From positions 9,222 to 73,221 of the forward strand of contig JAWADS010000001.1 of assembly GCA_038998625.1 (NCBI GenBank): a stretch of DNA of 64,000 nt. Direction: 5' to 3'. The notes under the pieces are model-generated. The model was not told the origin of the DNA. It saw nothing but the letters and a program-made list of their open reading frames with translations, and did not search any database. The stretch comes from Candidatus Aenigmatarchaeota archaeon (GTDB lineage: Archaea; Aenigmatarchaeota; Aenigmatarchaeia; CG10238-14; SCSR01). The position numbers and the translations under genes are program-made. Position 1 is the stretch's first letter, and each line of letters starts with the position of its first letter. Positions 7,843 to 56,899 of this stretch are shown here, in pieces.

Positions 7843-8598
7843 ATGTTAACCTTTATTGGTCTTGGCCTTTTCGATGAAAAAGATATTAGTTTGAGGTCTA
7901 TAGAGGAAGCAAAGAAAGCAGATAAAATTTACATCGAGCTTTATACTAGCAAATGGTTTGGTAGTTTAGAAAATTTGGAAAAAATTGTTGGCAAAAAAAT
8001 AATTGTTGCTAAGAGAAGTGATTTGGAAGAAAATTCTGAAAAAATTTTAGAAGAGGCAAAAAAATCAAAAATTATAATATTTGTTTTGGGCGATCCTTTA
8101 GTAGCCACTACCCACTCTTCTTTAATTTTAGAAGCAAGGAAAAGGGGTATAAAAACCAAAATAATTCATAATGCATCAATTATTTCAGCCATAGGTGAAA
8201 CTGGTTTACATTTACAAAAATTTGGTCCTTATGTTACTATTCCTTTTCCTGAAAGGACAAAAGGTAAATTGCCAGAGTCAATCTATGATGTAATTAAAAT
8301 GAATAAAATTAGAGGCTTGCATACCCTTTGTCTTTTAGATATAAATGAAAATAAAGTTATGAACCCAAAGGAAGCTATTAAAATTTTGTTGGATTTAGAA
8401 AATTTGAAAAAAGAAAATTTGATTACCAAAGATTCAAAAATTATAGTTTTATCTAAGGCAGGAAGCGATGACTCAAAAATTGTTTTTAACACAATAAAAA
8501 ACCTTCAAAGAATGGAAATAAATACCCCAGCAGTTTTAATTATTCCAGGAAAATTGCATTTTACTGAAGAAGAATTCCTCTCTTCGTTTAAAATATAA
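7843..8598 (+). CDS. dph5: diphthine synthase (Dph5)
   Basis: MLTFIGLGL N-terminus, tetrapyrrole-methylase fold motifs (VLGDPLVATTH), about 250 aa. Confidence 0.85.
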   Translation: MLTFIGLGLFDEKDISLRSIEEAKKADKIYIELYTSKWFGSLENLEKIVGKKIIVAKRSDLEENSEKILEEAKKSKIIIFVLGDPLVATTHSSLILEARKRGIKTKIIHNASIISAIGETGLHLQKFGPYVTIPFPERTKGKLPESIYDVIKMNKIRGLHTLCLLDINENKVMNPKEAIKILLDLENLKKENLITKDSKIIVLSKAGSDDSKIVFNTIKNLQRMEINTPAVLIIPGKLHFTEEEFLSSFKI

Positions 8599-33994: not shown

Positions 33995-35539
33995 TTATCT
34001 ATCTAAAATGAAAGTTTTTTTGTGGAGAGGCTCTTCTCTAACCACGTGAATTAATATTTCCCTTCTTTCCCCCACACCAAAGCAGTGCTCTTCCTCTAAA
34101 ATTTTTCTTACTCTTTCCAATTTTCTACTTTTCTCTGAAAATACAGTAAAAATTATATCACCCTTTTTCACAAAATCACCAACTTTTTTTCTTAATAAAA
34201 TTCCAGATCCTTTATCTTTTGGTGCTCCTGCAGCTCTAGCAACTTCAACTAAAGCATTGTTATCTAACCAAAGGACAAAACCATTTCTATCTGTTCTCAT
34301 ATCAAGCCCATAGCTACCTATTTCAATATCCTCAGGCCTTATGTGACTATCGCCACCTTGCCAAGAAATAATTTCCCTCAGCTTTTTTTCAGCCTCACCT
34401 GATTTTAAAATTTCTAGGGCAGTTCTTCTATCTCCTTTGTTAGTCATTTTTAACAAAATTCCAGCCAAATCAACAGCTTTATCAATTACATCAGGAACAT
34501 TTTTTCTTCTCATTAAAATTTCCAATGCTTCTCTCGCTTCTAAAGCTGGCCCTATGGCATAGCCCAAAGGTTCTTCTCCATATGTTACAGCACATTCTGT
34601 TTTTATTCCAAGTCTTTTCCCCAATTCAATAAAATCTTTAGCTAAAAGATTAGCATCTCCAATAGTTTTAACTTTCGATCCCCTTCCAGTAGGTATATCT
34701 ATAACTAAAAAATTTGATCCCACAGCCTTTTTTTTACTCATGATGGAAGGAAGCAAAAGTGGATCTATAGATAAAGGATGTTCAATTTGAATGAAAATAT
34801 CATCAGCAGGCGCCAAATGTAATGCGCCACCCCATACTATACAACCATTGCATTTATTAACAACATTTCTCATTTCTTCTATCTCCAATTCTACATTCAT
34901 TAAAACACTAGCTCTATCTGCAGTTCCAGCCGCACTTGTTATGGCTCGAGAAGAAGTTTTTGGTATGGTTAAGCCAGCAGCAGCTATTATGGGAACAAGT
35001 AATAAGGTTGTCTTATCTCCTGGTAATCCTCCCACAGAATGTTTATCAACTATAGAATTTTTTGTTTCAAGTTCAAGTTTTTTTCCAGTTTCTATCATTG
35101 CCAAGGTTAAGTTAATGGTTTCGTCTAAACTCAAACCAAAATCATTCAAAGCAGTAACGAAGGATGCAATCTCTAACTCGCTTAAATTACCCTCCACAAC
35201 ATCTCTAACAATTTGAAATATTTCCTCTCGAGATAATGTTCTTCCTTTAAGTTTATTTTTTATGTATTGCAAAGATTTAGGGAATTTTGCTGGTTCAACT
35301 TCTACTTCTTCATTTTCTCTTACTTCTAGAACACTTTGAACTTCTTCATAAATTCCAATAAAATTTTTTGGAACAACTCTTTTAGCAATATTTACTATTG
35401 CCGTAATGGTTTTTTTCTTAGTTTGTATTTTTATTCTACTCCCACTTCTTATTCCTAATTCTTCTGCATCTTCAAAGTTAATGATTGCGATAGGTTTGCC
35501 CCCAGACTCTAAGCCGAGAATTTTTATTTTTAGCTTCAT
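33995..35539 (-). CDS. AMP phosphorylase (thymidine phosphorylase family, DeoA-like with N-terminal extension)
   Basis: DKHSVGGLPGDKTTLLLVPIIAAAGLTIPKTSSRAITSAAGTADR matches pyrimidine-nucleoside phosphorylase core; about 514 aa with extra N-terminal domain as in archaeal AMPpase. Confidence 0.7.
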   Translation of the reverse strand: MKLKIKILGLESGGKPIAIINFEDAEELGIRSGSRIKIQTKKKTITAIVNIAKRVVPKNFIGIYEEVQSVLEVRENEEVEVEPAKFPKSLQYIKNKLKGRTLSREEIFQIVRDVVEGNLSELEIASFVTALNDFGLSLDETINLTLAMIETGKKLELETKNSIVDKHSVGGLPGDKTTLLLVPIIAAAGLTIPKTSSRAITSAAGTADRASVLMNVELEIEEMRNVVNKCNGCIVWGGALHLAPADDIFIQIEHPLSIDPLLLPSIMSKKKAVGSNFLVIDIPTGRGSKVKTIGDANLLAKDFIELGKRLGIKTECAVTYGEEPLGYAIGPALEAREALEILMRRKNVPDVIDKAVDLAGILLKMTNKGDRRTALEILKSGEAEKKLREIISWQGGDSHIRPEDIEIGSYGLDMRTDRNGFVLWLDNNALVEVARAAGAPKDKGSGILLRKKVGDFVKKGDIIFTVFSEKSRKLERVRKILEEEHCFGVGERREILIHVVREEPLHKKTFILDR

Positions 35540-37954: not shown

Positions 37955-38014
37955 TCTAATTAGAAGTTAAAATTAACTATTTAAATCAAAATCTTTTCTG
38001 AAATTTCAAATTAA

Positions 38015-38134
38015 TGGGGTCGGAGGGATTCGAACCCTCGTTAACCGGTTGCTTCTTACTTCTCATAGCTCCATATACTGGAGCCGGTTTTCTAATCATG
38101 GAAGATGTCTTAGACCTAGCTAGACCACGACCCC
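38015..38134 (-). tRNA. tRNA-Trp(CCA) with two predicted introns (about 17 nt after position 26; about 28 nt in anticodon loop)
   Basis: Minus-strand read: GGGGTCG-TG-GTCT-AGCTAGGTCTA-AGAC-A-[tcttccatgattagaaa]-ACCGG-CTCCA[gtatatggagctatgagaagtaagaagc]AA-CCGGT-TAAC-GAGGG-TTCGAAT-CCCTC-CGACCCC-A; perfect acceptor and T arms. Confidence 0.6.
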
Positions 38135-38235
38135 AGCCACCAGTGGGATTCGAACCCACAACCCCCTGATAACTTTCTGTCATTTTTCCAGTTATCAGGT
38201 ACAAGTCAGGTGCTCTACCGTTGAGCTATGGTGGC
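38135..38235 (-). tRNA. tRNA-Thr(UGU) with about 29-nt canonical-position (37/38) intron
   Basis: GCCACCA-TA-GCTC-AACGGTA-GAGC-A-CCTGA-CTTGTA[cctgataactggaaaaatgacagaaagtt]A-TCAGG-GGGTT-GTGGG-TTCGAAT-CCCAC-TGGTGGC-T; directly abuts tRNA-Trp. Confidence 0.7.
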
Positions 38236-43500: not shown

Positions 43501-44067
43501 ATGGTAGAAAAAGTTTGGGAAGGAGAATTAATTGAAAATAGAGTAATAATTTGGGATAGTCAAGCTGTTAATCTTTATGATGATTCTGGTTATGGTAAGC
43601 CCTTACCAGAGGACAAACCTGATAGAGTCGAATTAGATTTGGTGGAAGCCGCTTACTTATTAGAAAAAGGTAAGTTAAAAGTTTTTTTAAAGGAGGATAA
43701 GAAGAAAAGATATCTTAACTTTAATGAATTAATGGAAATAGGAGCAAAAAATATAAATCAGTTTCACCCTCAATTTATAGTTTTTCGCGACTTAAGAGAA
43801 AGAGGATATCTTGTTAAAACTGGTTATAAATTCGGTGCGCATTTTCGTGTTTATGATAGAGGAGTTAAATTGAAAAGAGGTCCAAAAGCTCCTCATGAAC
43901 ATACTAAATGGGTAGTGCATGCAGTACCAGAAGAGGCTGCCTTTTCATTACCTGAAATGTCTAGAGCAGTTAGATTAGCACACAATATAAGAGCGACATT
44001 TTTATGGGCAGTTGTGGATAAAGAGTCAGATGTCACTTATTATCAAATAACTCGTGTCACACCTTAA
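43501..44067 (+). CDS. endA: tRNA-splicing endonuclease EndA
   Basis: LVEAAYLLEKGKLKV; catalytic region GYKFGAHFRVYDRG...HEHTKWVVHAV...RLAHNIRATFLWAVVD closely parallels archaeal EndA (Tyr/His/Lys triad). Confidence 0.8.
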   Translation: MVEKVWEGELIENRVIIWDSQAVNLYDDSGYGKPLPEDKPDRVELDLVEAAYLLEKGKLKVFLKEDKKKRYLNFNELMEIGAKNINQFHPQFIVFRDLRERGYLVKTGYKFGAHFRVYDRGVKLKRGPKAPHEHTKWVVHAVPEEAAFSLPEMSRAVRLAHNIRATFLWAVVDKESDVTYYQITRVTP

Positions 44068-44123
44068 TCTCAATAGCCATTGATTAAGCATATAATTTAA
44101 TTTTAAGGAAAGATGGTGATGAA

Positions 44124-44324
44124 ATGGGAAGAATAAAAACTTCTTTTATTAAAAATTTGGGGGAAGAACTATACCAAAAGTATTCTGATAAGTTTTCTGA
44201 AGATTTTGAAAAAAATAAGGTAATTCTCAAAGAACTTATTGACATGAAATCAAAGAAATTGAGGAATATTTTAGCTGGTTATATAACTAATCTTAAGAAA
44301 AGAGAAAAATTACAACCATCCTAA
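44124..44324 (+). CDS. rps17e: 30S ribosomal protein eS17 (S17e)
   Basis: MGRIKTSFIKNLGEELYQKYSDKFSEDFEKNK matches S17e N-terminus; 66 aa. Confidence 0.8.
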   Translation: MGRIKTSFIKNLGEELYQKYSDKFSEDFEKNKVILKELIDMKSKKLRNILAGYITNLKKREKLQPS

Positions 44325-44365
44325 AGGTTTAATGTTTTAAAACATAAGTAAATTTTAAGAGGAAG

Positions 44366-45493
44366 ATGCTAAAAAAAGCTCAAGCAAGAATAGATGAATT
44401 TGCTTTTGTTCTTCTTGCAGGTGTTATATTAATTGTTATTTTAATGGTTGCTTGGACGACTCCAACTTCTGCTATTCCTTTAGTCGAGCCCAATTCCATC
44501 TCTTTAACTATAGGCTTAGGTACAACTAAAAGTGCTGTGTTAAATATAACTGGAATGCCTTCTACAAATGTTACATTATCAGCTTTTGGTAACATTGCGA
44601 AATTCACAAGATTCAGTAAAAATAATTTTGATGTCTTTGGCTCCGAGTTAGTTACGGTAATTTTCTCTATACCACCCAATGTTGCTACAGGCCTTTATAC
44701 AGGAAAGATAATCGTGAATTCTTCAGCTGGCTCAGCAAATATTCCTGTAGAAATAAATGTAGTTAATATAACAGCTCAACCCCTTTCAGTAAAGGCTATT
44801 CCTCTAGGGGATTTCTCTATAGTTGGGCCTAGCAAAACATTAGATTACAAAGAGAATCTCTATGTGGAGAGAAGCTATTTCTCAGAGCGCATATCGATAA
44901 TTTCTGGTGGCTTCTTAGCTGAAGAAGAGCTTGCGGCTTTAACAGGCGCAACTCTACAACTTTTCATATCTGAAACTAATGGATTAAGTAATTTAATTGT
45001 GGAAGTAAATGGAAAGGAAGTTTTCAAAGCAAAAGTTGACATGGGCTTAATAAACATACCCATAGATCCAAGTATTATTGGTGAGAAAAATGTCATTAAA
45101 ATAAGGGCAGATCTTCCAGGATGGCTATTTTGGACTTCTGCATATTACAGAATTGAGTCAGCTAAATTCTATGTAACTTTAAAAGGAATATTTTCCAAAG
45201 AATTTATTTTTTCCCTTTCTCCAATGGAGGCGACAAATTTTGATAGATTGCAAATCCAATTTATAGTTTTGAAATATTCTTCCCCTCTACCAGAATTATT
45301 TATAGAGGTGAACAATCAGCCTATATATGCTCAATCACCACCTTTGGCTTTATTTAATGCAACCTTCACAAAAGATTTATATGGCAATGGCTTGATGATG
45401 TTGCCTGGCAATAACACATTAAGATTTTTCTTCAGAAGGCCAGGAATTTATGATGTTGGCAATGCTTTGCTATTGTTCTTTTATAGAGGATAA
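44366..45493 (+). CDS. secreted/membrane-anchored hypothetical protein (beta-rich)
   Basis: N-terminal TM/signal FAFVLLAGVILIVILMVAWT; 375 aa, no recognisable enzymatic motif. Confidence 0.4.
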   Translation: MLKKAQARIDEFAFVLLAGVILIVILMVAWTTPTSAIPLVEPNSISLTIGLGTTKSAVLNITGMPSTNVTLSAFGNIAKFTRFSKNNFDVFGSELVTVIFSIPPNVATGLYTGKIIVNSSAGSANIPVEINVVNITAQPLSVKAIPLGDFSIVGPSKTLDYKENLYVERSYFSERISIISGGFLAEEELAALTGATLQLFISETNGLSNLIVEVNGKEVFKAKVDMGLINIPIDPSIIGEKNVIKIRADLPGWLFWTSAYYRIESAKFYVTLKGIFSKEFIFSLSPMEATNFDRLQIQFIVLKYSSPLPELFIEVNNQPIYAQSPPLALFNATFTKDLYGNGLMMLPGNNTLRFFFRRPGIYDVGNALLLFFYRG

Positions 45494-45498
45494 GCAAA

Positions 45499-45581
45499 TG
45501 GGCCTGTCCGGAATCGAACCGGAGTTTCGACCGTGTGAGGGTTTAACGCTTCGTCGCGTCCTACCACTAGACTACAGGCCC
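45499..45581 (-). tRNA. tRNA-Val(CAC) with predicted 12-nt intron inside the anticodon stem
   Basis: GGGCCTG-TA-GTCT-AGTGGTA-GGAC-G-CGAC[gaagcgttaaac]C-CTCACAC-GGTCG-AAAC-TCCGG-TTCGATT-CCGGA-CAGGCCC-A; removing 12 nt gives a perfect 5-bp anticodon stem. Confidence 0.65.
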
Positions 45582-45920
45582 TTAACTAATTATTGAGCCT
45601 TGGAAATCATATTTTTTAGTGAAAATTTGATTGAATTCTTCCCCAAGTTTTTGATCTAAATTTTCTAAAATTTTTTGGATCATTTCAAAGAAATCATATC
45701 TACAAAGGAACAAGTCCTCTGATTTCACTTTCGCTTTGATTATTCCAAATATTTCGATTTGATTTTTCTTCTTAAGCCAAGTAGCTAAGGAGGAAAAGAA
45801 TTTTTGTACTTCTTCTTTTTTAATAATTCGATTAATGGGCCAACCACAAATAGCACAATATTTACCATAATAAGAATCAGATTCATCTTCAGAATCTCTG
45901 CATTCCAAACAAACTTCCAA
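45582..45920 (-). CDS. small zinc-ribbon protein, hypothetical
   Basis: TTG start; CLEC...CAIC CxxC pairs; the in-frame upstream region with another CDVC pair has no canonical start. Confidence 0.35.
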   Translation of the reverse strand: MEVCLECRDSEDESDSYYGKYCAICGWPINRIIKKEEVQKFFSSLATWLKKKNQIEIFGIIKAKVKSEDLFLCRYDFFEMIQKILENLDQKLGEEFNQIFTKKYDFQGSIIS

Positions 45921-46181
45921 ACCATTAAAATTTTTAGAATCCTCTACAACATCTCCACATACGTCACAAATTTCTAATGTAGAAGTATTGTTTTCTTTGA
46001 AAATATTTTCAGAGTATTTCCATATGACATCAAGGATTTGGGGTTAGTTTTCCCCTCCAGATGCCGATAAATTTGTGTAAGAGAAATTAATGTTCTTGAA
46101 CTTATCGCACCTGGAGGTTCTCATGATAATAATTTTAAAACTGTTAATTTTTAAAAGCTTTTCTATACTTCTTTATCTAAT

Positions 46182-47465
46182 TTAAAAATCTTTAAGAGAT
46201 TTCTGAGTTCGTAATTTTTTTTCTTTCAGTATGATATTTTCATTAAAAACTGGCTTACCATACAACCCATCTGATCCAGCGATGTATTTAACTTTCCCTT
46301 CTCTAACTTTTATAATTGCGTCTGCAATTTTTTCATTCGTAACTTTTAACAATTCTTCCTTAGCAACATTTAATAAAACATTGAATTCATTACCAAATTT
46401 TTCAATGATTTTATTATACTCATGTAAAACTTTTTTTGAATAAAATTCTTCACCCAAGATAAAGGAAATTATTTCATATAAAGGCAACAATGTTTTGTAA
46501 GGAATGGCATCTTTAGGTATAAAACCTTCTGGCCTATCTGCTAATTCTTCAACCCTTTGCAATACTCCTACAGTAAGTTTTCTCTTACATTTTGGGCAAG
46601 TGTTATTAAACTTTTGTGCTTCTCTAGGATGTAAACTTATTCCGCAACTTCTATGGCCAGTGAAATGATATTTTCCATAATTTGGGTCTGTTTCAATAGT
46701 ATACAAAAATTTTTTTCTATCTTTATTTTTTATCGCATTATAAATTTCCTTGTAGCTTAATTCTTCTAGCTCTAAAACATTCGCCTCCCTTCCCAATCGC
46801 CAAGGATTAGCTGAATGAGAATCAGAATTGGACATTAAAGTTACTTTATCTAAACTACTTAATCTCCAATTCATAGCTGGATCACTGGACAAACCAGTTT
46901 CTAATGCAAAAATATTTTTTATTTGATCTTGATAGCATTCTTCTAAAGAATCGAATCCTGATTTTGAGCCGAAAACAGAAAACCATGGAGTCCATGCATG
47001 GCTCGGCAAAATTATAATATCTCTAGAAATGCTCATTAAAATCTCCACTAACTCAGGAGAAGTTAATCCATTAAAGGTAGGTCTGCCATCTAACTCTAAA
47101 TTGCTTTTTTTTGATAAAACGTCAATGATTTGCTCTGCCGTTTCGATATTTGGTACATAAAATAAATGATGAACTTTTCTGATTTTTTTATCTTGCTCAT
47201 AAACAGTATTTACCTCACCAGTTATCATCCAAAAAATTTTGTATTTATAAATTCCGCTATCGCCTATAGGTTTCAATTTTTCTTTTAACTCCTTTAACCA
47301 TTTTGGATGTGTGCAATCGCCACTACCCAATAAATTTAGACCTTTAACTATAGCGCCATTAGCTAGAGTATCTATGGAAATATTTTTACTCGTGGCACGT
47401 GAATATTTTGAATGGATTTGTAGATCTGCAATTATTTTCATCACAACCAACTTTTGAATTTCCAA
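46182..47465 (-). CDS. endonuclease Q (EndoQ; PHP-like domain plus zinc finger)
   Basis: DLQIHSKYSRATS, LNLLGSGDCTHPKWLKELKE, VHHLFYVP, SNSDSHSANPWRLGRE, CPKCKRK closely parallel Thermococcales EndoQ. Confidence 0.8.
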   Translation of the reverse strand: MEIQKLVVMKIIADLQIHSKYSRATSKNISIDTLANGAIVKGLNLLGSGDCTHPKWLKELKEKLKPIGDSGIYKYKIFWMITGEVNTVYEQDKKIRKVHHLFYVPNIETAEQIIDVLSKKSNLELDGRPTFNGLTSPELVEILMSISRDIIILPSHAWTPWFSVFGSKSGFDSLEECYQDQIKNIFALETGLSSDPAMNWRLSSLDKVTLMSNSDSHSANPWRLGREANVLELEELSYKEIYNAIKNKDRKKFLYTIETDPNYGKYHFTGHRSCGISLHPREAQKFNNTCPKCKRKLTVGVLQRVEELADRPEGFIPKDAIPYKTLLPLYEIISFILGEEFYSKKVLHEYNKIIEKFGNEFNVLLNVAKEELLKVTNEKIADAIIKVREGKVKYIAGSDGLYGKPVFNENIILKEKKLRTQKSLKDF

Positions 47466-47863
47466 TGGGAGTGCATTTTTATTATCATCAAATCAGATAA
47501 AAAATCTAAAATAAGATGGGCCAGCATAGACAAAAGAAAAATTGCTATAAAAGTATTGATAAGATTTGCGATGGGCAATGATATTAAAATTATCAGAATT
47601 GTTAAAAAATTGTGGAAAGGCAAAAAAGTTTTTCTATATCTATCTGCTTTCATAACTTCTTTTATGAATTTCCAAAAACCGAGATTCTTATACAATTTTC
47701 TCATGGTGAAATGATCGATATCCGGGAATAGACATCCAGCAACAACAACTAAAATCAAAGTTTGAAAATCTATTTTTGGTAAATAGTAATGAATTAAGCG
47801 AATCATTAAAATTGGCAATACGATATGGGAAATATTGTGAAGCATTATTTTTATGTTTACCAT
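47441..47863 (-). CDS. membrane-bound metal-dependent hydrolase-like protein (DUF457/YdjM-like)
   Basis: 140 aa, 3-4 TM, FPDIDHF motif. Confidence 0.4.
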   Translation of the reverse strand: MVNIKIMLHNISHIVLPILMIRLIHYYLPKIDFQTLILVVVAGCLFPDIDHFTMRKLYKNLGFWKFIKEVMKADRYRKTFLPFHNFLTILIILISLPIANLINTFIAIFLLSMLAHLILDFLSDLMIIKMHSHWKFKSWL

Positions 47864-47879
47864 ATTTTTTCATTTCATT

Positions 47880-48461
47880 TTATAAAAAATAAGGTAGCAA
47901 CAATAAAAATGCAATCAAAATCATTAAAAACCATAACCATGGTTTCCATGCCACAATCTTACTTCCATCCAAGGGCGGAACAGGTAGCAGATTAAAAAAA
48001 GCTAACCAAGAGTTTATTAAACTCAAAAAATCAGCATAAGTTAAGGGTATTAATGTGAAAAGCAATGCAAAAGCAATGTTAACAGCTGGACCTGCAGCAG
48101 AAATTATTCCGGATTCTTTTAAAGTTAATCTTACTGCTCTATAGCCCCATCTTCCGAATCTGAAAGGAAAAATTACAACAGCACCTGGGGCAGCAAATTT
48201 AAATCTACCAAAAGTTATGATGGCCGTTAATAAACCTAAAACTAAGCCAAAAGGCCATACTTTAAATTGAGCATGGCATCCAAATTTTTTTGCTGTAAAT
48301 TTATGGGCCAATTCATGAAAAAGAAAACCTATTATTACAGCTATAAGATAAAGCAAAATTAAATCTACCCTTGAAAAAGCATGAGGATAAGAAAAAATAA
48401 TAGTTAGAGCAATAAGGGCAACGATAATATCTCTTATTTCATTTTTTTCAAAAATTTTCAT
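47880..48461 (-). CDS. M50-family intramembrane zinc metalloprotease
   Basis: FLFHELAHKF HExxH in TM helix; LDGSKI second motif. Confidence 0.6.
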   Translation of the reverse strand: MKIFEKNEIRDIIVALIALTIIFSYPHAFSRVDLILLYLIAVIIGFLFHELAHKFTAKKFGCHAQFKVWPFGLVLGLLTAIITFGRFKFAAPGAVVIFPFRFGRWGYRAVRLTLKESGIISAAGPAVNIAFALLFTLIPLTYADFLSLINSWLAFFNLLPVPPLDGSKIVAWKPWLWFLMILIAFLLLLPYFL

Positions 48462-48470
48462 ATTATTCCT

Positions 48471-49232
48471 TTATGTCAAAAAATATTTTAATGCTTCTTC
48501 AATATTTCCAACTTCTCTGATTTCTATTCCAGAAACTTCAGAAACCACCACTCTTTCTGGAACATATTCTATTCTGCAGTATGTAAATCTACCAATTCTT
48601 TTACAATCTTCTACAGGCTTATAATTGGTTTGCATTCCTTGTCCAGAAGGTACTAAAAATAGTTTTGCACCTATTTGTTTAGCAGCATTGGACTTTGCAA
48701 TTATTCCACCCACTGGTCCTATAGTGCCATCAAGATTAATAGTTCCTGTTATCATAACACTTTGATTAACACTTTTGTTCTGAATGGCAGCAATGGTTGC
48801 TATAGTCAATGCAGCTCCTGCTGAAGGTCCTTCTATAATGGTGGCTTCTGTTTCCACTGAATATATTAAATCAATTTTAGAAAGATCTGCTTTCGTAAGA
48901 TTTTGAGCCACATCTTTAGCTATTCTTATAGATTGTTGTGTATCTATCCAGAATAAAATTTGATTAATGTCTACAAGAACCCTTCCTTCCCCAGGCAAAA
49001 CTTCTACACTTAACTTAACTGGCACTCCATTTCCTTGATTATCTATTGCCGGTACAAAAAGACTTACTTTATTTTTTGTTATGTTAGTTATTTCAAAAGT
49101 TTTGTTAGCACTAATGAGCTGAGTGCCGATATTTTGATTGGATAAAATATTTACTAATTCTAGTCTAACGATGGATAAAATTATTAAGGAAATTAAAATT
49201 AGTGAAAAAGAAATAACGTTAATTTTTTTCAT
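48471..49232 (-). CDS. membrane-anchored Lon-like S16 peptidase-domain protein
   Basis: N-terminal TM; IEGPSAGAALTIATIAAI...ITGTINLDGTIGPVGGIIAK matches Lon proteolytic domain (Ser-Lys dyad). Confidence 0.6.
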   Translation of the reverse strand: MKKINVISFSLILISLIILSIVRLELVNILSNQNIGTQLISANKTFEITNITKNKVSLFVPAIDNQGNGVPVKLSVEVLPGEGRVLVDINQILFWIDTQQSIRIAKDVAQNLTKADLSKIDLIYSVETEATIIEGPSAGAALTIATIAAIQNKSVNQSVMITGTINLDGTIGPVGGIIAKSNAAKQIGAKLFLVPSGQGMQTNYKPVEDCKRIGRFTYCRIEYVPERVVVSEVSGIEIREVGNIEEALKYFLT

Positions 49233-49280
49233 ACGTATTTTAATCCTTTCTTCTCTATTTAAATTTTTTCATTAATTTTT

Positions 49281-49566
49281 TTAATAAAGAGAGCGGGAGT
49301 GCGCCCTTGGTTGTTACATATCTATAAACTATTTAACCCAAATCCCCTTCTCAGCTCAGTGACTTTCAAGCACCACACTAACTAGCTTATGGCTGCTTGG
49401 TTCCCCACCTGACCAGGTTCGCTAGTTAGTTGGCCCTGAAAGGCTGAGCCTCTTAGTTAGAGATTTGGAATAGCCTATAGATATGTACCGCCCAAAGGCT
49501 TCGACTCGGCCATCAGGACCATTTGCCGATGTAGGCGAGGCCCAGCCGCCCAGGTCTAACTCCCGC
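49281..49566 (-). ncRNA. signal recognition particle RNA (7S/SRP RNA)
   Basis: Minus strand contains CCTGGTCAGGTGGGGAACCAAGCAGCCATAAGC, matching the universally conserved SRP helix-8 motif (compare E. coli 4.5S CCAGGUCAGGUCCGGAAGGAAGCAGCC); 5' GCGGGAG pairs with 3' CTCCCGC; about 286 nt and GC-rich relative to surroundings. Confidence 0.7.
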
Positions 49567-55122: not shown

Positions 55123-55266
55123 TGCAGGGGGTGGGATTTGAACCCACGAAGGCACTAAGCCACGAGGTTTCTTATCTTCATCCTATCAGAGCTCAAGTAA
55201 ACCTCTATCTTGAGCTTCGCGCAACTTTAAAATCTCGCGCCATTGACCAGGCTAGGCGACCCCTGC
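55123..55266 (-). tRNA. tRNA-Leu(CAA) with about 58 nt of intron sequence (probably two introns flanking the anticodon loop)
   Basis: GCAGGGG-TC-GCC-TAGCCTGGTCAAT-GGC (Leu-type D arm)...CTCAAGA anticodon loop...TGGCTTAGTGCCTTC long variable arm-GTGGG-TTCAAAT-CCCAC-CCCCTGC-A; 144 nt against about 86 expected. Confidence 0.55.
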
Positions 55267-56008: not shown

Positions 56009-56094
56009 TGCGCCAGCCGGGATTTGAACCCGGGCCCTAAGCTTGGCAAGCTTCCACAACTTTTTATGTCCTAACCAGGCTAGACTACTGGCGC
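56009..56094 (-). tRNA. tRNA-Gly(GCC) with predicted 12-nt intron in the 5' half of the anticodon stem
   Basis: GCGCCAG-TA-GTCT-AGCCTGGTTA-GGAC-A-TA[aaaagttgtgga]AGC-TTGCCAA-GCTTA-GGGC-CCGGG-TTCAAAT-CCCGG-CTGGCGC-A. Confidence 0.6.
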
Positions 56095-56399: not shown

Positions 56400-56813
56400 A
56401 AAATTTTCTCCTTAATTACTATTTATCACTATTTTGTTATAAAAAGCTTTAAGTTTTCGTAAGATTTAAAAGGCTTATTTTTCAAATAAGAATTTAAGAC
56501 CAAACATGTTAACAAAAATAATAGGGTTGTATTTAATATTTGATGGGATAGTAAGCTGGCTGATATATAAAAGGCAGAAAATACTAATATTGGGCAAAAA
56601 GATTGTATCACTTTATCCCTTTAGCAAACATCATAAGATAAGAAACAAGGGAATAGTTAAAACAGTAAAACAAGATTTAAACGAGCACCTACCTAGATTC
56701 TTTAGAGTAATACTAGGCTTTACTTTGGTAGTTACACCTCTACCAATATAATATCCTGAATTCTTGTTTCCAGTGAGAGGTTTGCCTTTTTCTTCTATTT
56801 TTTAATTTTCAAA

Positions 56814-56899
56814 AGCCCCGAGTGGGATTTGAACCCACGACCCAGTGCTTACGAGGCACTTAAGCTTAAATTTGCTCTACCAGACTGAGCTATCGGGGC
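56814..56899 (-). tRNA. tRNA-Thr(CGU) with predicted 12-nt intron between D arm and anticodon stem
   Basis: GCCCCGA-TA-GCTC-AGTCTGGTA-GAGC-A-[aatttaagctta]-AGTGC-CTCGTAA-GCACT-GGGTC-GTGGG-TTCAAAT-CCCAC-TCGGGGC-T. Confidence 0.6.

Follow-up and report, generated by a model that had tools for sequence, protein, structure and literature searches.

Six tRNA genes, all located on the minus strand, were identified by Rfam in the window (the whole 64-kb stretch of DNA that was analyzed), and a relaxed threshold did not add any further gene. Each of the six contains at least one intron, which makes a minimum of seven for the window; three of these are 12 nt long and lie between positions 27 and 30. 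One of these three short introns resides in the gene for tRNA-Val(CAC), close to the gene for the tRNA-splicing endonuclease EndA. The coordinates of the genes and of the elements of the tRNA-Val gene are compiled in Table 1. The class-II-like gene of 144 nt may code for a tRNA-Leu(CAA) that contains at least two introns. The genes for tRNA-Thr(UGU) and tRNA-Trp(CCA) abut without any spacer, with Trp starting at the base after the 3′ end of Thr, which implies a dicistronic precursor. A tmRNA candidate at 38012..38134 on the minus strand was rejected, with an Rfam score of 28.2 bits vs. a gathering score of 47 and an overlap with the tRNA-Trp gene; it almost certainly reflects nothing but tRNA-likeness. 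A/T-rich, TATA-like elements were seen upstream of all six tRNA genes, which is weak evidence in a genome with a GC content of 32%. For tRNA-Val, the A/T-rich sequence AAAAAATAT, from about −36 to −28, is the candidate promoter. A Cys-rich ORF of 108–112 aa (45582..45920, minus strand) ends 1 nt before the 5′ end of the tRNA-Val gene, so that either the promoter would lie inside the 3′ end of this ORF or the tRNA would be co-transcribed with it.

Table 1. Genes and sequence elements of the window discussed in the text; nucleotide numbers refer to the unspliced tRNA-Val gene.
Feature	Position	Strand	Description and evidence
tRNA-Trp(CCA) gene	38015..38134	(-)	two introns: 17 nt (near 26/27), 28 nt (canonical)
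tRNA-Thr(UGU) gene	38135..38235	(-)	intron of 29 nt, canonical
endA, tRNA-splicing endonuclease	43501..44067	(+)	188 aa; Pfam PF02778 and PF01974; 1.4 kb from tRNA-Val
tRNA-Val(CAC) gene with intron	45499..45581	(-)	83 nt; 12-nt intron at 28/29; Rfam tRNA (52.2 bits), cloverleaf after 12-nt deletion, ARAGORN on the spliced form
tRNA-Val 5′ exon, nt 1–27	45555..45581	(-)	acceptor strand, D arm, nt 26, C27 and G28 of the anticodon stem; register by bulge-helix-bulge geometry
tRNA-Val intron, nt 28–39	45543..45554	(-)	ACGAAGCGUUAA, Sprinzl 28/29; sole register of three with 4/4 helix, potential 3-nt bulges and 3′-terminal AA
tRNA-Val 3′ exon, nt 40–83	45499..45542	(-)	remaining anticodon arm, variable loop AAAC, T arm, acceptor strand, A73
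Anticodon CAC	45535..45537	(-)	
Central helix H, 5′ strand	45557..45560	(-)	G22 A23 C24 G25 (3′ strand of the D stem and nt 26)
Central helix H, 3′ strand	45545..45548	(-)	C34 G35 U36 U37, within the intron
5′ splice-site bulge	45554..45556	(-)	C26 G27 / A28 (CGA), effectively within the 8-nt loop closed by H
3′ splice-site bulge	45542..45544	(-)	A38 A39 / A40 (AAA)
Class-II-like tRNA gene	55123..55266	(-)	144 nt; Rfam 35.7 bits, class-II-like D arm, CUCAAGA stretch
tRNA-Gly(GCC) gene	56009..56094	(-)	12-nt intron at 29/30
tRNA-Gly(GCC) intron	56052..56063	(-)	AAAGUUGUGGAA
tRNA-Thr(CGU) gene	56814..56899	(-)	12-nt intron at 27/28
tRNA-Thr(CGU) intron	56860..56871	(-)	AUUUAAGCUUAA

The first-pass annotation had described an 83-nt gene for a tRNA-Val with the anticodon CAC, in which 12 nt interrupt the 5′ strand of the anticodon stem, and had named a covariance-model search as a way to check it. 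Such a search with Rfam RF00005 matches the 83-nt gene on the minus strand (E 2.5e-08); 21 nt are assigned to the insert state of the anticodon arm and loop. The sequence of the gene in its own orientation is GGGCCUGUAGUCUAGUGGUAGGACGCGACGAAGCGUUAAACCCUCACACGGUCGAAACUCCGGUUCGAUUCCGGACAGGCCCA; CCA is not encoded at its 3′ end. ARAGORN yielded no match for the unspliced 83-nt gene, and it recognized the spliced 71-nt sequence as tRNA-Val(cac). After removal of the 12 nt the minimum free energy (MFE) fold of the remaining 71 nt is a perfect cloverleaf, consisting of an acceptor stem of 7 bp, a D stem of 4 bp, an anticodon arm with a 5-bp stem (CGACC/GGUCG, GGTCG in the DNA) and the loop CUCACAC, a variable loop of 4 nt, a T arm of 5 bp, and A73. 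Three independent assemblies (Logan SRR27730025, SRR27730028, and SRR27730029) contain the 83-nt gene with 100% identity, so that it does not represent an assembly error.

An exhaustive scan of all single deletions in the tRNA-Val gene, scored for the cloverleaf, assigned the top score to only three of them, namely those at Sprinzl positions 28/29, 29/30, and 30/31. As a direct repeat AC flanks the insert, these three cut registers lead to one identical mature sequence. In archaea, tRNA introns are recognized by a motif of the bulge-helix-bulge (BHB) type, in which a central helix (H) of 4 bp is formed and each cut is located 2 nt 3′ of a helix strand. The descriptions of the motif given in PMC5829648 and PMC7714728 agree with this rule. 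In register 28/29 all four base pairs of H are formed, and the cuts would fall between G27 and A28 and between A39 and A40. Register 29/30 (CGAAGCGUUAAA) provides two of the four pairs and an outer helix of 3 bp (G22-C42, G21-C43, A20-U44), and register 30/31 (GAAGCGUUAAAC) only one of the four. It was the latter register that had been chosen in the first-pass annotation: its 12 nt (gaagcgttaaac) give the right mature tRNA, yet they correspond to just one of three equivalent registers, and to one with an almost unpaired central helix.

The pairs of H in the precursor of tRNA-Val are G22·U37, A23-U36, C24-G35, and G25-C34, and the two cuts lie on opposite strands, each of them 2 nt 3′ of an H strand, as expected for a BHB-type intron (shuffle P = 0.005). 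Of the 12 nt of the intron, 1 belongs to the 5′ bulge, 5 to the loop, 4 to the helix, and 2 to the 3′ bulge, a layout that places the 5′ site within an 8-nt loop. Since only 5 nt separate the 5′ bulge from H, a proper inner helix is impossible. The outer helix consists of a single base pair (G21-C41), as does the inner one (C29-G33, closing a triloop). A strict hBHBh′ motif has at least 2 bp in both h and h′; the Val motif, having 1 bp in each, is therefore classed as relaxed or bulge-helix-loop (BHL)-like. When folded without constraints, the precursor adopts an MFE structure (−33.4 kcal/mol) that holds a helix 22–26/33–37, which is H extended by C26-G33. Bulges of 3 nt can be drawn for the trinucleotides CGA and AAA; in the MFE fold, C26 instead forms a pair with G33 and a 2 × 2 internal loop harbors the 3′ site, and forcing both bulges open costs 5.7 kcal/mol relative to the MFE. 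Formation of H also needs the D stem to be melted. In terms of chance, a 4/4 splice helix in any valid register was found in 0.5% of shuffled introns and in 2% of random AT-rich 12-mers, and in 0.3% of shuffled introns if the AA end was required in addition. Taken by itself, the motif of tRNA-Val is only moderately unlikely to arise by chance (P about 0.005–0.02).

Related loci were collected by a metagenome scan with EndA, which yielded 80 loci. These were surveyed with an intron-agnostic tRNA finder based on the T arm and the acceptor, a scan for cloverleaf-restoring deletions, and a BHB scorer. Among the 71 unique perfect class-I tRNA genes obtained from the window and the related loci, 54 contain one intron and 17 are intronless. 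Introns are most often 12 nt long (23 genes), and none is shorter than 10 nt. As 10–13 nt is the normal size in this lineage, the Val intron is typical for its organism and not exceptional; a literature search for a stated minimum length of archaeal tRNA introns, against which the first-pass claim that 11–13 nt is among the shortest reported could be set, did not retrieve any figure. At least three of the four H pairs are present in 45 of the 46 unique genes with introns of 10–18 nt, vs. 26% of shuffles, and all four in 28 of them, vs. 3% of shuffles. An AA at the 3′ end was found in 41 of these 46 introns. In tRNA-Arg(GCG) genes the two strands of H co-vary (UUGC with GCGA, GUAA, GUGA, and GCAA; CUGC with GUAG and GUGG). 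Within the window, the introns of tRNA-Gly(GCC) and tRNA-Thr(CGU) share the layout 1 + 5 + 4 + 2 with tRNA-Val. With outer helices of 4 bp, AAA/AAG bulges, and 3/4 (Gly) or 4/4 (Thr) pairs in H, both are cleaner examples than the Val intron.

The gene order from endA via S17e and a hypothetical gene to tRNA-Val (minus strand) and further to the SRP RNA (minus strand) is common to the window (43501..49566) and four related Aenigmarchaeota contigs (L027, L033, L042, and L053), whose EndA proteins are 74–82% identical to that of the window. In these contigs the tRNA-Val gene is intronless and 71 nt long in L027, carries an intron of 12 nt (L033) or 13 nt (L042) at 25/26, and one of 12 nt at 37/38 in L053 (90% identity of the mature tRNA). 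Further Val orthologs were found in L093 (12 nt at 37/38), in L059 (50-nt intron at 37/38) and, outside of the order of endA and SRP RNA, in L087 (no intron, 71 nt, 87% mature identity). The Val orthologs were cross-checked with Rfam; the one at 8298–8381 of L042 was found by the custom finder only and is not reported at the gathering threshold. A blastn search of the tRNA against the related loci yielded few orthologs, and a scan of the genome collection with the pattern GGACGCGA-N(8-38)-CTCACACGGTCG yielded only chance matches (high-GC bacteria and two haloarchaea) and no relatives. In the intronless Val genes the sequence runs …GGAC-N-NNACC-CUCACAC…, as predicted for the junction in the gene of the window; the anticodon arm proposed in the first-pass annotation is what L087 and L027 encode. 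The exons are conserved while the intron is absent or located elsewhere. As far as sequences go, these intronless orthologs are the strongest support for an intron, and the Val orthologs together show a rapid positional turnover of introns. A second orthologous series with turnover of the intron position is provided by a gene for tRNA-Phe(GAA), which is found just upstream of endA in L027, L029–L031, L036, L040, L053, L098, and L102. Some of its members are intronless and others contain introns of 12–18 nt at 22/23, 26/27, or 30/31. The window does not contain a Phe gene beside endA.

With endA, the organism encodes a splicing endonuclease, as a BHB-type intron demands. The protein is identical to an EndA labeled 'MAG: tRNA-intron lyase [Candidatus Aenigmatarchaeota archaeon]' and is the presumed enzyme for removal of the Val intron. 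Its best match in the PDB is the α4 enzyme of M. jannaschii (1A79), and its architecture looks like that of a single-subunit, α4-like endonuclease. No second EndA gene was found in the 64-kb window; a weak tblastn match at 34428–34676 was rejected as a second subunit, as it lies antisense inside a 514-aa phosphorylase-like ORF. Relative to the M. jannaschii enzyme, the EndA of the window contains a basic insertion of six residues between the catalytic Tyr and His. This loop aligns without gaps to that of NEQ205, the catalytic subunit of N. equitans (YDIGVIPKKGKRSEREH vs. YDRGVKLKRGPKAPHEH), so that EndA carries a lineage-specific basic loop as known from broad-specificity enzymes (NEQ-type L3). 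The NEQ-type loop, whose role in broad specificity is putative (PMC3488258), corresponds to what Hirata 2012 called the 'Nanoarchaea/ARMAN-2 specific loop' (PMC3488258), and it was renamed L3 in Kaneta 2018 (PMC5829648). Basic loops have been reported to accompany the cleavage of relaxed motifs (PMC3488258, PMC5829648), and, according to Kaneta 2018, L3-bearing α4-type EndAs in DPANN archaea accompany an increased disruption of tRNA genes (PMC5829648).

The catalytic triad Tyr-His-Lys is incomplete in the EndA of the window. Tyr118 and His134 are present, and the column of the Lys is occupied by Ala165: the five solved archaeal EndAs that were aligned exhibit the motif H-S-x-R-K, and the EndA of the window H-N-I-R-A. 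In 79 related EndAs (including those of L027–L106) this column contains Ala in 76, Thr in two, and Ser in one case, and never Lys, and Tyr118, His134, and Lys129 of the loop are invariant in all 79. Given the missing catalytic Lys, EndA may not be the active or the only catalytic subunit. Either the loop lysine may have taken over the catalytic role or another catalytic subunit may be encoded elsewhere.

Cleavage by EndA and joining of the exons by an RtcB-type ligase constitute an established pathway for archaeal tRNA introns, and we infer that the tRNA-Val described here follows it, that cleavage does occur, and that it occurs at the bonds given above by the neighboring EndA. The 12 nt are most likely a protein-spliced and near-minimal archaeal tRNA intron, which would be cut at 28/29 by this enzyme. 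Before splicing, GACG, made up of the D stem's 3′ strand and nt 26, would pair with CGUU of the intron and thereby form the central helix of 4 bp. The 5′ cut between G27 and A28 would then be placed 2 nt past H in the 8-nt loop, and the 3′ cut between A39 and A40 2 nt past H in the AAA bulge. The EndA encoded 1.4 kb away would cleave both sites, and the exons would be joined by an RtcB-type ligase. After ligation, the D stem and the anticodon stem could form and give rise to the 71-nt tRNA-Val(CAC), with a predicted spliced product reading …GGACGCG followed, after the junction, by ACCCUCACAC…. No RtcB motifs were found in the 64-kb window, which says little for a piece of DNA this small.

The same intron might be cut in register 29/30 or 30/31 (GAAGCGUUAAAC), which would leave the mature tRNA identical and change only the bonds that are cleaved. 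All three registers restore the same mature sequence, and register 29/30 offers the 3-bp outer helix that register 28/29 lacks. Nevertheless, cutting in either of these registers appears unlikely, given their 2/4 (29/30) or 1/4 (30/31) pairs in H vs. 4/4 for register 28/29, which is also the only one to place AA at the 3′ end of the intron, a feature of 41 of the 46 lineage introns. A pseudogene, in which the tRNA is disabled by 12 inserted nucleotides that are not spliced out, would fit with the weak outer helix of the splice motif and with the failure of ARAGORN to recognize the unspliced gene. However, all stems are perfect once the 12 nt are deleted, the gene occupies a conserved syntenic tRNA-Val position, and the insert exhibits both the splice geometry and the AA end typical of the lineage. 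Moreover, the interruption is alike in all six tRNA genes of the window and in 54 of the 71 surveyed genes, which cannot all be pseudogenes. A pseudogene is hence very improbable.

Even less credence can be given to the idea that the mature tRNA keeps the 12 nt, in the form of an additional bulge or a mini-hairpin in the anticodon stem. An interrupted anticodon stem is expected to disturb the function of the anticodon arm. If the 12 nt are looped out of the anticodon stem, the resulting cloverleaf is less stable than the MFE fold by about 10 kcal/mol, and in the orthologs the insert is absent at 28/29 or located elsewhere. Lastly, an artefact of assembly or sequencing could be suspected as the source is a metagenome-assembled genome. 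Yet, the tRNA-Val gene is the same in the three independent run assemblies mentioned above and comparable introns are found in dozens of JGI contigs that are independent of each other, so that an artefact has next to no probability and is effectively already refuted. A group I or group II intron is ruled out by size alone.

A protein-spliced intron at this site is a new example among the known non-canonical archaeal tRNA introns. Such introns are well documented, including positions 29/30 and 30/31 in the anticodon stem (PMC4090602, PMC8450103), and the same is true for relaxed and BHL splice motifs, as described in PMC5829648 and PMC12397907. A literature search for a paper specifically on tRNA introns of Aenigmarchaeota found none. 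The Val intron resembles the BHB introns of Crenarchaeota (Thermoproteales), Thaumarchaeota, and Nanoarchaeota in lying outside of 37/38 and, presumably, in being spliced by proteins. It further shares with them a helix of 4 bp, flanked by bulges in those introns and by putative ones here, in a motif that is often relaxed, and a position that shifts between related species. Unlike these introns, it is found in a host from the Aenigmarchaeota (DPANN), is located at 28/29, and is with its 12 nt near the minimum of the motif. In addition, the enzyme here looks like a single-subunit α4 endonuclease and not like one of the (αβ)2 type.

A likeness also exists to the relaxed hBH/HBh′ and BHL substrates of A. 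pernix, N. equitans, and ARMAN-2, in which one cut lies in a bulge next to a 4-bp helix and the other one in a loop. Cleavage of such BHL or relaxed substrates has been tied to a basic loop that is specific to the lineage and lies close to the active site (PMC3488258, PMC5829648, PMC12397907). The loop found here is of the NEQ/ARMAN-2 'L3' type (YDRGVKLKRGPKAPHEH), and neither CSL nor ASL. The combination of a single EndA gene with an L3 loop and many interrupted tRNA genes is similar to that of the L3-bearing DPANN archaea in Kaneta 2018 (PMC5829648). The DPANN groups added according to the methods passage of that study are Pacearchaeota, Woesearchaeota, Nanohaloarchaea, and Mancarchaeum, with no Aenigmarchaeota among them; in the accessible portions of the text the latter are named once, where the acronym DPANN is expanded, and the loss of the catalytic Lys is not mentioned in these portions (PMC5829648). 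Another likeness is that to the tRNA micro-introns that cryptophyte nucleomorphs carry at non-canonical positions (3–24 nt; Kawach 2005, as cited in a passage of PMC4090602), the removal of which from stems likewise restores the cloverleaf. According to that passage, however, these belong to a eukaryotic organelle-like genome, with an unknown splicing mechanism and an undemonstrated BHB geometry, whereas the geometry of the Val intron fits an archaeal endonuclease.

For the annotation of DPANN genomes, the intron explains why the needed tRNA-Val(CAC) escapes ARAGORN and illustrates that tRNAs of these archaea can be under-counted or mislabeled. In the window, ARAGORN finds only two of the six tRNA genes; the gene for tRNA-Gly(GCC) is mislabeled as 'tRNA-Phe (aaa)' and the boundaries of the tRNA-Thr(CGU) gene are shifted (56813..56891). 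Standard annotation of the tRNAs of this lineage is likely wrong or incomplete. Within one series of orthologous tRNA-Val genes, there is either no intron or an intron of 12–13 nt at 25/26, 28/29, or 37/38. This series is useful for studying the gain, loss, and movement of archaeal tRNA introns as well as the minimal substrate of the endonuclease. It is tempting, if rather speculative, to assume that the tRNA genes of Aenigmarchaeota in general run on near-minimal BHL introns of 10–13 nt with shifting positions among orthologs, which would be cut by a single-subunit EndA that uses K129 instead of the lost Lys. If true, a rewired active site of EndA would be coupled to a relaxed recognition of its substrates. 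The apparent loss of the catalytic Lys in the EndA of this lineage is a testable question of enzymology and more interesting than the intron itself.
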